The notes: generated by a model from the letters alone, not told the origin. DNA of 6,197 nt from a virus (IMGVR_UViG_2531839128_000014); one strand, 5' to 3'. Positions 2,195-6,197 are shown, numbered from the stretch's first letter. A program made the numbers and translations.

Positions 2195-5100
2195 TTTGGG
2201 GATTGATGCGGCAGAGTTTAAAAATGAAATTCCCCGTATCAAAAACCTTCTGAATGGTGCAGCCAGCGATGCAGAACGGTCTTCTGCCCGTATGCAGCGT
2301 TTTATGGAGCGTCAGACTCAGGCCGCCCGGCAGACAACGCAGGCGGCTTCTTCGGCTGCAACAGCCGCATCCGTCCATGCGCAGACGGTGGAGAAGAACG
2401 CACAGGCTCATGAACGCATGGCCCGCGAGGTGGAGAAAACCCGCCAGCGCATGGAGGCACTGAGCCAGAAAATGCGTGAGGAACAGGCGCAGGCCATGGC
2501 TCTGGCGGAGGCTCAGGATAAAGCGGCTGCTGCGTTTTATCGTCAGATTGACAGTGTGAAACAGGCCAGTGCGGGGCTGCAGGAATTACAGCGTATTCAG
2601 CAGCAGATCCGACAGACCAGAAACAGTGGCGGGATTGGTCAGCAGGATTATCTGGCGCTGATTTCTGAGGTTACGGCGAAAACCCGTGTTCTTACACAGG
2701 CTGAGGAAGAGGCTACCCGACAGAAAGTGGCGTTTATCCGTCAGCTTAAAGAGCAGGCAACCCGCCAGAATCTTTCATCTTCTGAGTTGCTTCGTGCCAG
2801 GGCAGCCCAGCTGGGGGTAAGCAGTGCTGCAGAAGTGTATATCCGCAAAATGGAGCAGGCAGGAAAAGCCACGCATTCGCTGGGTCTGAAAAGTGCAGCA
2901 GCCCGCCAGGAGATAGGCGTTCTGATAGGTGAACTGGCCCGTGGCAATTTAGGAGCGCTGAGGGGATCCGGGATAACGCTGGCTAACCGTGCCGGATGGA
3001 TAGACACACTGATGTCACCGAAAGGCATGATGCTGGGCGGGGTTATTGGCGGTATTGCCGCGGCCGTCTATGGTCTGGGTAAAGCCTGGTATGACGGTCA
3101 GAAGGAGGGGGAAGAATTTAACCGCCAGCTGTCACTGACGGGGCATTATGCCGGAGTCACTGCCGGGCAGCTGTGGACGCTCAGTCGTGCTATTTCCGGG
3201 AATGGTATCACGCAACATGCTGCAGCCGGTGCGCTGGCTCAGGTGGTGGGGAGTGGTGCATTTCGTGGAAACGATATCGGTATGGTGGCGAGAGCTGCCG
3301 CACAGATGGAGCGATCGGTTGGCCAGTCGGTCAGCGATACCATAAATCAGTTTAAGCGGCTGAAGGATGATCCTGTAAATGCCGCGAAGGCTCTGGACAA
3401 TGAGCTGCATTTTCTTACTGCCACTCAGCTTGAGCAGATACGCGTCCTTGGGGATCAGGGGCGGTCCAGTGATGCTGCACGGATAGCCATGTCTGCACTG
3501 GCAGAGGAAACCGGTCGGCGTACTGCGGATATTGATAATAACCTCAATGCGCTGGGCAGTACGCTGAAGTATCTGTCTGATTTATGGAGTCGTTTCTGGG
3601 ATGCGGCCATGAATATTGGTCGTGAAGACTCGCTGGATGAACAGATTGCCGCTTTACAGGAGAAAGTGTCGCGGGCGAAAAGACTCCCCTGGACGGCATC
3701 ATCTTCTCAGGTTGAATACGATCAGCAGCGTCTTAACGATCTTCAGGAGAAAAAACGCCAGAAGGATTTGCAGGATGCAAAAGAGCAGGCAGAGCGGAAT
3801 TATCAGGAGCAACAGAAACGCCGTAATGCTGAAAATGCTGCACTGAACCGGATGAATGAAACGGAAGCTGCACGACATCAGCGTGAAATTGCGCGTATTA
3901 ATGCCATGCAGTACGCCGATCAGGCTGTCAGGGATGCGGCGATACAACGTGAAAATGAACGTTACGAGAAAGCCCTGGCATCCGGTAAGAAAAAAACACG
4001 CGAAACCCGTAATGATGAGGCCACCCGGTTATTGCTGCAGTACAGTCAGCAACAGGCACAGGTGGAAGGACAGATTGCTGCTGCCAGACAGTCAGCAGGC
4101 ATTGCCACGGAAAGGATGACAGAAGCGCATAAACAGCTTCTGGCTCTGCAGAAGCGCATCAGCGACCTGGACGGGAAAAAACTGACGGCAGATGAAAAGA
4201 GTGTGCTGGCCCGTAAAGATGAACTGATTCAGGCACTGACGCTGCTGGATGTAAAACAGCAGGAGCTTCAGAAACAGACGGCACTCAACGAGCTGAAGAA
4301 AAAAACAATTCAGCTGACCAGTCAACTGGCTGAAGAAGAGCGCGCTCAGCGTCAGCAACATGACCTGGATATCGCCACGGTGGGTATGGGTGATCAGCAG
4401 CGACAGCGATATCAGGTACAACTGAGTCTTCGCCAGAAATACCAGCAACAGCTGGAGCAGTTGAGGCGGGATAGTGAGCAGAAAGGGACATATAACACGG
4501 ATGACTACAGAAAGGCCGAGCAGGCGCTGACGGAGAGCCTGAACCGACAACTGAATGAGAATCGCCGTTACTGGCAACAGCTTGAAGTTGTGCAGGGTAA
4601 CTGGAAAAACGGAGTCCTGCGTGCATTTCAGGATTTTACCGTGGATGCAGATAATACGGCAGAAACAGCAGAACAGGTGTTCTCGTCAGCCTTCAGCAAC
4701 ATGGGAAATGGCCTGGCAACTTTTGTCACTACCGGCAAACTCAATTTCAAATCCTTCACCTCTTCTGTGCTGTCAGATATGGCGAAAATCCTGGCGCAGG
4801 CAACCATGATGAAATCGATAAAAGGGATTGGCAGTGTACTGGGATTTGATCTCAGCAGCCTTTCCCTGAATGCCAATGGGGGGATTTATCAGTCTGCTGA
4901 TTTGAGTCGTTACAGTGGCACGGTGGTTAACCGTCCGACGTTTTTTGCTTTTGCAAAAGGCGCGGGTGTGATGGGGGAAGCGGGACCTGAAGCCATTCTG
5001 CCACTGCGTCGTGGTGCTGACGGTAAGCTGGGGGTTGTGGCGGATATTGGGGGTTCAGGTATGGCGATGTTTTCCCCGCAGTACAACATCGAGATCAATA

Positions 5101-5231
5101 ACGATGGCACGAACGGGCAGATAGGTCCGGCTGCCCTGAAGGCGGTTTATGACCTCGGGAAAAAAGCGGCAGCGGACTTTATGCAACAGCAGGCCCGTGA
5201 TGGTGGTCGGTTAAGTGGAGCATATCGGTAA
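2166..5231 (+). CDS. H: Tail tape measure protein (lambda gpH family), about 1021 aa
   Basis: Large ORF in the frame of track ORF 2136..5231. I place the start at ATG 2166 because it follows GGAGG (2153-2157) by 8 nt and gives MDQIANLVIDLGIDAAEF, aligning with the lambda gpH N-terminus as I recall it (MAEPVGDLVVDLSLDAARF). The C-terminus (...NNDGTNGQIGPAALKAVYD...RDGG...) matches lambda gpH closely. The protein has an internal Gly-rich hydrophobic segment and a long Q/E/R/K-rich predicted coiled-coil centre. Stop TAA at 5229-5231. Confidence 0.95.
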   Translation: MDQIANLVIDLGIDAAEFKNEIPRIKNLLNGAASDAERSSARMQRFMERQTQAARQTTQAASSAATAASVHAQTVEKNAQAHERMAREVEKTRQRMEALSQKMREEQAQAMALAEAQDKAAAAFYRQIDSVKQASAGLQELQRIQQQIRQTRNSGGIGQQDYLALISEVTAKTRVLTQAEEEATRQKVAFIRQLKEQATRQNLSSSELLRARAAQLGVSSAAEVYIRKMEQAGKATHSLGLKSAAARQEIGVLIGELARGNLGALRGSGITLANRAGWIDTLMSPKGMMLGGVIGGIAAAVYGLGKAWYDGQKEGEEFNRQLSLTGHYAGVTAGQLWTLSRAISGNGITQHAAAGALAQVVGSGAFRGNDIGMVARAAAQMERSVGQSVSDTINQFKRLKDDPVNAAKALDNELHFLTATQLEQIRVLGDQGRSSDAARIAMSALAEETGRRTADIDNNLNALGSTLKYLSDLWSRFWDAAMNIGREDSLDEQIAALQEKVSRAKRLPWTASSSQVEYDQQRLNDLQEKKRQKDLQDAKEQAERNYQEQQKRRNAENAALNRMNETEAARHQREIARINAMQYADQAVRDAAIQRENERYEKALASGKKKTRETRNDEATRLLLQYSQQQAQVEGQIAAARQSAGIATERMTEAHKQLLALQKRISDLDGKKLTADEKSVLARKDELIQALTLLDVKQQELQKQTALNELKKKTIQLTSQLAEEERAQRQQHDLDIATVGMGDQQRQRYQVQLSLRQKYQQQLEQLRRDSEQKGTYNTDDYRKAEQALTESLNRQLNENRRYWQQLEVVQGNWKNGVLRAFQDFTVDADNTAETAEQVFSSAFSNMGNGLATFVTTGKLNFKSFTSSVLSDMAKILAQATMMKSIKGIGSVLGFDLSSLSLNANGGIYQSADLSRYSGTVVNRPTFFAFAKGAGVMGEAGPEAILPLRRGADGKLGVVADIGGSGMAMFSPQYNIEINNDGTNGQIGPAALKAVYDLGKKAAADFMQQQARDGGRLSGAYR

Positions 5232-5560
5232 TGGAGACGTTTCACTGGAAAGTGCGCCCGGATATGAATGTGGTATCAGAGCCGAAAGTGGTGACAGTGA
5301 AGCTGGGCGATGGTTATGAACAGCGTCGTGCGGCGGGACTGAATAACCAGTTGTCGACTTACAGCGTGACGATACGTGTTCGTAAATGTGAACACCCATC
5401 TTTAAAAGCCTTTCTGGAACGGCACGGTGGCGTCCGTGCATTTCAGTGGACGCCACCTTATGACTGGAAACCGATCAGGGTGGTTTGTCGTAAATGGTCG
5501 GCAAGCGTGGGGGCGCTGTGGGTAACCATAACGGCAGATTTTGAACAGGTCGTGGCATAG
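5231..5560 (+). CDS. M: Minor tail protein (lambda gpM family), 109 aa
   Basis: Supplied ORF 5231..5560. Its start overlaps the H stop in a TAATG motif (5229-5233). It is the same length as lambda gpM (109 aa), and METFHWKV...GDGY.QR...YSVT...ERHGG...WTPPY.W..I.V.C.KWS...FEQV closely resembles lambda gpM as I recall it. Confidence 0.93.
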   Translation: METFHWKVRPDMNVVSEPKVVTVKLGDGYEQRRAAGLNNQLSTYSVTIRVRKCEHPSLKAFLERHGGVRAFQWTPPYDWKPIRVVCRKWSASVGALWVTITADFEQVVA

Positions 5561-5569
5561 GAGGCTCTG

Positions 5570-6197
5570 ATGCAGGATATTCCACAGGAAACACATCATG
5601 AGACGACACGCCTCACTCAGTCAGCCCAGGTGGTGCTCTGGGAAATCGATCTGACAGAGGTCGGTGGAGAACGTTATTTTTTCTGTAATGAGCAGAACGA
5701 AAAAGGTGAGCCGGTTACCTGGCAGGGGCGGCAGTATCAGGCATACCCCATTCAGGGGACAGGATTTGAACTGAACGGCAAGGGCAGTGCTGCCCGTCCG
5801 ACACTGACGGTTTCTAACCTGCACGGTATGGTCACCGGGATGGCGGAAGATCTGCAGAGTCTGGTCGGCGGAACGGTGGTCCGGCGTAAGGTTTACGCCC
5901 GTTTTCTGGATGCGGTGAACTTCGTCAACGGAAACAGTGACGCCGACCCGGAGCAGGAGGTGATCAGCCGCTGGCGCATCGAGCAGTGCAGCGAACTGAG
6001 CGCGGTCAGTGCCTCTTTTGTACTGTCCACGCCGACGGAAACGGACGGCGCTGTTTTTCCGGGACGTATCATGCTGGCCAACACCTGCACCTGGACCTAT
6101 CGCGGCGATGAGTGCGGTTATAGCGGTCCGGCGGTCGCGGATGAATATGACCAGCCGACGTCCGATATCACGAAGGATAAATGCAGCAAATGCCTGA
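5570..6197 (+). CDS. L: Minor tail protein (lambda gpL family), N-terminal about 209 aa (3' end lies outside the window)
   Basis: Not in the ORF track because it has no stop inside the window. My translation from ATG 5570 (Shine-Dalgarno AGGAGG 5562-5567, overlapping the M stop TAG 5558-5560) is open to the window end: MQDIPQETHHETTRLTQSAQVVLWEIDLTEVGGERYFFCNEQNEKGEPVTWQGRQYQ...CTWTYRGDECGYSG...KCSKCL. This is very close to lambda gpL as I recall it. Confidence 0.93.
   Translation, partial: MQDIPQETHHETTRLTQSAQVVLWEIDLTEVGGERYFFCNEQNEKGEPVTWQGRQYQAYPIQGTGFELNGKGSAARPTLTVSNLHGMVTGMAEDLQSLVGGTVVRRKVYARFLDAVNFVNGNSDADPEQEVISRWRIEQCSELSAVSASFVLSTPTETDGAVFPGRIMLANTCTWTYRGDECGYSGPAVADEYDQPTSDITKDKCSKCL

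Follow-up and report, generated by a model that had tools for sequence, protein, structure and literature searches.

Where along its tail genes does a lambdoid prophage become closely akin to lambda, and by what route did it come to be so? The question is raised by the window analyzed here, a stretch of 6,197 nucleotides (nt; IMGVR_UViG_2531839128_000014) that constitutes the whole of contig APYM01000373.1 from the fragmented draft assembly GCA_000357205.2. It covers the tail-shaft and tape-measure region of an Escherichia coli lambdoid prophage, arranged Z'-U-V-G/GT-H-M-L', with eight collinear reading frames on the + strand, of which the first is entered within Z and the last is cut within L. 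Gene order and the Pfam family of each complete product, all above gathering scores, match those of lambda and thus of a lambda-like siphovirus tail cluster (Table 1). An initial, sequence-only reading held that the C-terminal part of the tape measure gene H (from the motif NWKNGV onward), all of M, and the visible part of L were nearly identical to lambda, and suggested a recombination boundary inside H. The comparisons presented here place that boundary in L. With a probability of about 85%, the window is a lambdoid mosaic in which the sequence up to position 5629 is an ancient, diverged homolog of that of lambda, save for an island of 20 codons in H, and in which everything from codon 21 of L belongs to a shared tail-tip block (L, K, the ends of I, and J 1-800; 92-98% nt identity in all of the E. 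coli lambdoid lineages compared) that has been spread by repeated homologous recombination.

The lambda tail genes from Z to L (reference J02459.1) have the same order and the same Pfam families as those of the window, but the products of Z, U, V, G, T, H, and M are only 25-63% identical to their counterparts. Amino acid (aa) identity amounts to 63% for the last 70 codons of Z, 54% for both U and V, 29% for G, 38% for T, and 25% for H, which agrees with the sequence-only reading of U, V, G, T, and most of H as diverged homologs and places Z among them. The expectation for M was not borne out; its product shares 60 of 108 residues with that of lambda (55.6%) and the nucleotide identity over 5231-5566 is 58.6%. 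With L, the near-identity proved real: 194 of 209 residues are the same (92.8%), and megablast aligned 5567-6197 at 92%. The only other megablast matches to lambda were 5093-5153 (61 nt, 92%) and 3-123 (82%); with blastn, approximately 70 nt encoding the N-terminus of H could also be aligned (2141-2212, 72%). Of the 230 columns aligned between NWKNGV (residue 812, nt 4599) and the C-terminal end of H, 76 match lambda (33%). Nucleotide identity is 45% over 4596-5092, 92% over 5093-5153, and 48% over 5154-5230, so that of the claim made for the H C-terminus, the part concerning the motif INNDGTNGQIGPAALKAVYD (20 of 20 residues) stood and the part concerning the remainder did not. NWKNGV coincides with the start of the Tape_meas_lam_C domain, and family-level homology at this point appears to have been taken for near-identity; as seen with both M and this domain, an apparent near-identity can be family-level motif recognition.

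The position of the step was located by maximum chi-square scans. Over 4560-6197, the best single breakpoint fell immediately before 5630, with an identity to lambda of 0.531 to its left and 0.944 to its right (chi-square 288; reached by 0 of 1000 shuffles). The same position recurred when M and L together, or L alone, were scanned, with chi-square values of 177 to 288 and left-hand identities of 0.53-0.60 depending on the interval, and again 0 of 1000 shuffles. There are 22 mismatches to lambda in 5567-5629 and then a single one in 5630-5715; identity is 65% over 5567-5629, 88.9% over 5630-5800, and 96.7% over 5801-6197. No identity step relative to lambda was found by the maximum chi-square scan inside H (2166-5231), which is where the identity profile had been predicted to show one. 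The 20-aa motif of H and the near-lambda character of L are both real, and the region of about 4596-4626 does contain a domain boundary (Tape_meas_lam_C) as well as a cassette boundary relative to phages cdtI and phi458. Nonetheless, descent of L, the whole of M, and the H C-terminus from lambda by way of one breakpoint within H near NWKNGV (~4600) is refuted by the identity profile and is scarcely credible given the 33% identity downstream of the motif, the divergence of M at both its amino acid and synonymous sites, the location of the best breakpoint at 5630, and the confinement of megablast matches within the scanned interval to 5093-5153 and 5567-6197.

The breakpoint at 5630 also delimits a segment that conforms to the definition of a mosaic applied by De Paepe et al. 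(2014; PMC3945230), viz. at least 100 base pairs (bp) at greater than 90% identity: 5630-6197 is 94.4% and 5801-6197 is 96.7% identical to lambda, compared to 45-60% in H and M. The adjoining stretch 5567-5629 is of intermediate identity (65% vs. 58.6% in M; scored without the statistic of those authors) and is suggestive, from its sequence, of a homologous-recombination trace flanking the near-lambda block. The overall profile, a background of ~60%, an intermediate flank, and a mosaic at >90%, resembles their model for such traces.

Synonymous divergence follows the same course. The number of synonymous substitutions per synonymous site (dS, Nei-Gojobori) relative to lambda was calculated to be 1.49 for U, 1.90 for V, 2.47 for H, and 1.56 for M, and within L it declines from 0.92 (5570-5647) through 0.51 (5648-5800) to 0.12 (5801-6196). 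The thirteen-fold fall from M to distal L takes place across a few hundred bases and therefore indicates more recent shared ancestry, i.e., recombination, and not protein constraint alone. That L has remained near-lambda without any recombination, simply through much stronger purifying selection than that acting on M and H, would be consistent with the low nonsynonymous divergence of the distal L segment (dN 0.010), which speaks for a strongly constrained protein, and with the description of homologs of gpL (the L protein) as universally carrying an iron-sulfur cluster (PMC10721106). This explanation is very unlikely, however, because the synonymous sites collapse with the nonsynonymous ones, the change is abrupt, the high identity spans several genes, no Rfam family was matched anywhere in the window, and the pairing of a lambda-type M with a window-type H in phage phi458 (OP434518) requires exchange.

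For what lies past the end of the contig, the closed chromosome of E. coli MMC-J-0020 (NZ_CM128549.1) served as a proxy. Its prophage, which adjoins ydfJ beside cspI and gnsB (a Qin-like position), differs from the window by 6 mismatches over ~4,300 nt (about 1900-6197). Relative to lambda, the MMC-J-0020 prophage is 94-98% identical from the equivalent of window position 5800 through L and K and 90-100% identical in J up to approximately lambda position 17900, beyond which identity drops again in the receptor-binding end of J. At the protein level, the corresponding values are 92.7% for L, 97% for K, 79% for I (85% at residues 135-223), and 98% for J 1-800. In the middle of gene I (L017 21040-21687) there is a patch of ~300 nt (lambda 14958-15280) that is 60-74% identical to lambda, with both ends of I conserved; residues 61-134 of gpI in this prophage share 42 of 74 positions with lambda. 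The block is abundant: a search of 5,426 complete E. coli genomes with window positions 5801-6197 gave matches in 4,193 of them, at a total of 8,504 places (median of 2 per genome) and for the most part with 95-99% identity. Over nt 231-628 of L, all seven of the lineages compared are 92-97% identical to one another and display no class structure; the window's copy shares 97% identity with phi458, 96% with lambda, and 94% with mEp460. Judged from these alignments, the near-lambda stretch was not acquired from lambda but is common to all of the lambdoid lineages compared. Since the L-K-I-J block recurs as a near-repeat, in multiple copies, in the majority of E. coli genomes, draft assemblies break at it and chimeric contigs can arise from it, and for this reason mosaic junctions on short contigs need read support.

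Immediately upstream, M presents a different picture, ranging from 57% to 100% identity across the seven lineages and falling into at least three allele classes: that of the window, mEp460, cdtI, and MB06234; that of lambda and phi458; and a type represented by GCA_044916205. The M gene of the window is 99% identical to those of mEp460 and cdtI and ~60% identical (nt) to that of lambda, and its allele was located at 1,921 places in 1,782 of the 5,426 complete genomes. The spacing of M and L likewise differs: the window and mEp460-type phages have a spacer of 9 nt (5561-5569), while the M stop and L start overlap in lambda, phi458, and those type A prophages (see below) that possess lambda-type heads. 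The relationships of adjacent genes are incongruent. With phi458, T and H are of the window type (96-100% outside of a cassette at 4600-4900), but M is of the lambda type (96% identical to lambda and 60% to the window), and the breakpoint relative to the window is positioned at ~5209, at the H/M boundary. This pairing in phi458 shows that M is reassorted separately from H and that exchange at these gene boundaries does happen.

The exception to the divergence of the upstream sequence is the island at the C-terminus of H. All five of its nucleotide differences from lambda are synonymous, giving a dS of 0.47 against 2.47 for H as a whole. In the structures of the lambda tail tip, residues 818-849 are the sole part of gpH to have been modeled; they form a three-helix coiled coil that rests on a trimer of gpI residues 135-223 in the lumen of the tip (PMC10721106, PMC12617516). 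PDB entries 8IYK and 9E7M both match the corresponding part of the query, and the island, equivalent to lambda gpH 809-828, overlaps the start of this helix. By analogy, it probably persists because the tape measure must dock on a conserved gpI/gpJ hub, and the seating of the island on the gpI plug would provide a simple, testable reason why diverged tape measures fit a common tip. The island may also be a small conversion tract in its own right, the sample being too small to tell. Its candidacy, and that of the frameshift region described below, as a known RNA element was dropped in view of the Rfam result.

According to the mosaic interpretation, homologous recombination would have occurred repeatedly among lambdoid prophages sharing a host, and also with infecting phages, presumably catalyzed by RecA or by phage recombinases of the Red/RecT type that tolerate short, diverged homology. 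Such exchange would both spread and homogenize the tip block, which would be combined anew with discrete M, H, T, G, and V alleles, with crossovers falling in short conserved stretches. The sequence-only reading was right in recognizing the modular exchange typical of lambdoid phages, with a near-lambda distal tip joined to old, diverged homologs of the proximal tail genes. Mosaicism of lambdoid tail genes by homologous exchange is reportedly discussed in the comparisons of HK97 and HK022 by Juhala, Hendrix, and colleagues; it has long been established, the window is a textbook case of it, and the finding matters little beyond correct annotation. In the lambda-like group, mosaics generated by homologous recombination were found to be commonplace and attributed largely to Rad52-like phage recombinases acting on short, diverged homology (De Paepe et al., 2014; PMC3945230). 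Those mosaics, like the window, consist of a segment of >100 bp at >90% identity with an intermediate flank between genomes that are otherwise ~60% identical. They differ in having a median length of ~400-500 bp, as opposed to several kilobases here (through the proxy prophage), and the present block occurs in most E. coli lambdoid prophages instead of in a single pair of genomes.

Several points weigh against this interpretation. The boundary is not one clean step; identity to lambda proceeds from 65% (5567-5629) to 99% (5630-5715), back to 78% (5716-5803), and then to 97%, with 18 of the 19 mismatches within 5630-5800 situated in 5716-5800, and several nested events must therefore be assumed. 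The alignments covered only 10 comparators, and the breakpoints were placed by maximum chi-square scans. The dS of the H island is based on just ~14 synonymous sites, and the docking constraint proposed for it is drawn from the structures of lambda and not from the phage of the window. Finally, neither the direction nor the timing of the exchange is recoverable.

Table 1. Coordinates and assignment of features within the 6,197-nt window.
Feature	Position	Strand	Remarks
Gene Z homolog, 3' end (last 70 codons)	3..215	+	63% aa vs. lambda Z 123-192; Pfam Minor_tail_Z in contig record
Gene U homolog (tail terminator)	212..613	+	Pfam Phage_tail_U, E = 8.6e-60; 54% aa vs. lambda U
Gene V homolog (tail tube protein, C-terminal Big_2 Ig-like domain)	636..1406	+	Pfam Phage_TTP_12 and Big_2; rarer type A allele
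Gene G homolog (tail assembly chaperone)	1467..1856	+	Pfam Phage_TAC_2; 29% aa vs. lambda G; type A allele
Crossover interval, type A (1-1859)/type B (1830 onward), 30 nt	1830..1859	.	Holds G stop codon and putative frameshift site
Putative -1 slippery site G_GAA_AAG for G-T fusion	1844..1850	+	Read from sequence; non-canonical heptamer
T reading frame (-1 relative to G)	1865..2194	+	Pfam Phage_tail_T; common type B allele
Gene H homolog (tape measure protein, 1021 aa)	2166..5231	+	Pfam TMP_2, TMP_4, Tape_meas_lam_C
Tape_meas_lam_C domain of H	4596..4820	+	PF09718, H residues 811-885, E = 4.7e-22
Variable cassette inside H	4626..4884	+	Maximum chi-square breakpoints before 4626 and before 4885, 0/1000 shuffles each
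Conserved island, H C-terminus INNDGTNGQIGPAALKAVYD	5093..5153	+	Lambda gpH 809-828; 20/20 aa, 56/61 nt identical
Gene M homolog (distal tail protein)	5231..5560	+	Pfam Phage_min_tail; mEp460/cdtI-type allele, not lambda-type
Gene L homolog, first 209 of 232 codons, cut by contig end	5570..6197	+	Pfam Phage_tail_L, E = 6.9e-90
Best-supported breakpoint vs. lambda, codon 20/21 of L (60 nt into L)	5629..5630	.	Maximum chi-square
Intermediate-identity patch inside near-lambda block	5716..5803	+	19 mismatches (~78% identity) vs. 12 in 5804-6197
Start of tail-tip block (L-K-I-J), continues past window end	5801..6197	+	96.7% nt vs. lambda, dS 0.12

The sharpest junction of the window lies between G and T and separates two types of prophage sequence, A and B. 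Positions 1-1859 are an exact match to a type A prophage locus (L009) and positions 1830-5667 are an exact match to a type B contig of a sister assembly (L029); the last mismatch to type B is at 1829, the first mismatch to type A is at 1860, and the maximum chi-square breakpoint relative to MMC-J-0020 is at 1830. In the collection, 323 blocks contain the exact V protein, and all eight of the contexts listed for it have a T product of 100 or 104 aa together with an H of 1010 aa. None of the nine contexts listed for the exact G protein have the T and H of the window; in all 17 of the listed contexts, the T product is of 100 or 104 aa and H is of 1010 aa. No carrier of the junction (1650-2050) was detected by megablast among the 5,426 complete E. 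coli genomes (best match 92.8%), the exact pattern 1793-1912 is absent from both the GTDB representative genomes and IMG/VR, and an 81-nt version of the pattern is absent from the JGI metagenomes.

This junction is either a very recent recombinant that arose through the 30-nt microhomology or an assembly chimera. As an explanation of the window's mosaicism, an artefact of assembly, in which two co-resident prophages were joined at 1830-1859 and the last 500 nt are possibly a collapsed repeat, is improbable. It would accord with the window being the complete contig of a fragmented draft, with the 100% identity of its two parts to different known types that overlap by exactly 30 nt (which would equal k-1 for a de Bruijn graph with k = 31), and with the lack of the junction from each of the collections searched and from the 17 listed contexts. 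Moreover, in sister assemblies whose H is identical, the upstream V-G is of the ordinary type B, and one sister contig stops at the same point in L. Conversely, the contig continues unbroken across the shared 30-mer, it is listed for 3 samples, and ~30 bp has also been reported as the minimum homology for recombination by Red-beta (PMC3945230). Above all, the sequence spanning M and L is present in the closed chromosome of MMC-J-0020, and hence the M/L junction is not an artefact; the finding there lies within the part of the window confirmed by a closed genome and is left intact by the question surrounding G and T.

The 30-nt interval also contains the stop codon of G and a candidate site for frameshifting. 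In lambda-like phages, T is produced fused to G through programmed -1 frameshifting close to the G stop, with G binding H and T binding V. Reading from the sequence, the -1 frame of the window is open only from 1823 and continues into the T reading frame, and two codons before the G stop is the heptamer GGAAAAG, which includes A_AAG. It is put forward as the slippery site in place of the canonical GGGAAAG (G_GGA_AAG) of lambda, which is placed further upstream; it does not follow the canonical pattern X_XXY_YYZ, and re-pairing in the P-site would be non-canonical. It is conceivable, though we regard it as doubtful, that the H island and this G-stop/frameshift region, conserved in nucleotide sequence for functional reasons, are recurrent and portable crossover anchors by which shaft and tape-measure modules are swapped onto a common tip, with the contig being a genuine V(A)-G(A)|T(B)-H(B) hybrid, unique to date. 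Were this to be so, the anchors would even permit G to be split from T, and the hybrid would test the compatibility of the chaperones in nature.

The closest phages to the window by megablast are mEp460, Ayreon, vB_EcoS-569R4, and cdtI (92-94%, in two pieces); in that search, lambda was aligned at the far right alone. Together with the MMC-J-0020 prophage, mEp460 (JQ182728), cdtI (AB285204), Ayreon, and vB_EcoS-569R4 have the same gene order, Z-U-V-G-T-H(1021 aa)-M-L, and the same M allele, and between about 1860 and 6197 they share 97-100% identity with the window; in T, the identity of mEp460, cdtI, and MMC-J-0020 is 100% (nt) from ~1900. They differ over 1-1829 (Z', U, V, and G), where identity is ~80% and falls to 43-67% in the C-terminal immunoglobulin (Ig)-like part of V, and cdtI differs in addition over the H cassette at 4626-4885. 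Prophages of type A with the exact V and G are found in GCA_044916205.1, GCA_000356665.2, and E. coli MB06234, the last being 98.4% identical to window positions 1-1859. These prophages carry other alleles of T (product of 100 or 104 aa), H (1010 aa), and M, with 40-90% nt identity to those of the window.

Aside from the island, H is distinguished by a variable cassette that overlaps the Tape_meas_lam_C domain, in which cdtI and phi458 have identities to the window of 0.60-0.79 compared to 0.96-1.00 in the flanks. On the evidence of these alignments, it is a genuine allele-swap cassette that is unrelated to lambda and visible only in comparison to cdtI and phi458. The start of H was taken to be the ATG at 2166, following the annotation of the 3066-nt H genes of mEp460 and MMC-J-0020; the mechanical list of reading frames has a TTG at 2136. 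The resulting product of 1021 aa is 168 residues longer than the gpH of lambda (853 aa). Tail length scales with that of the tape measure, at ~0.15 nm per residue of lambda H, and if this applies here, the tail would be ~25 nm longer than that of lambda.

Both ends of the contig are situated in near-invariant stretches, the 3' end of Z and distal L, that are 96-100% identical across most of the prophage types compared. The first 100 nt of the window, with 96-100% identity in most types and exceptions in PhiR47_1 (78%) and lambda (82%), give the Z end a repeat-like character. The contig of one sister assembly terminates at the same base in L, and the positions of these ends suggest that the contig breaks at multi-copy prophage repeats.

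With V, a start at GTG 633, as called mechanically, was dropped in favor of the ATG at 636. The C-terminal Ig-like (Big_2) domain encoded by 1101-1400 is the region of V most diverged from that of the mEp460 type, the N-terminal tube domain retaining ~80% nt identity. For two further sequences, PhiR47_1 and Tritos, the megablast match to the window begins only at 1401. In the contexts of the exact V and G proteins (L009-L016, L019-L027), the type A module Z-U-V-G-T-H(1010 aa) is joined in some genomes to lambda-type head genes (Nu1-A-W-B-C-D-E-FI-FII) and in others to an HK97-like head module with a ClpP-protease/capsid fusion, marking another mosaic boundary at the head-tail junction.

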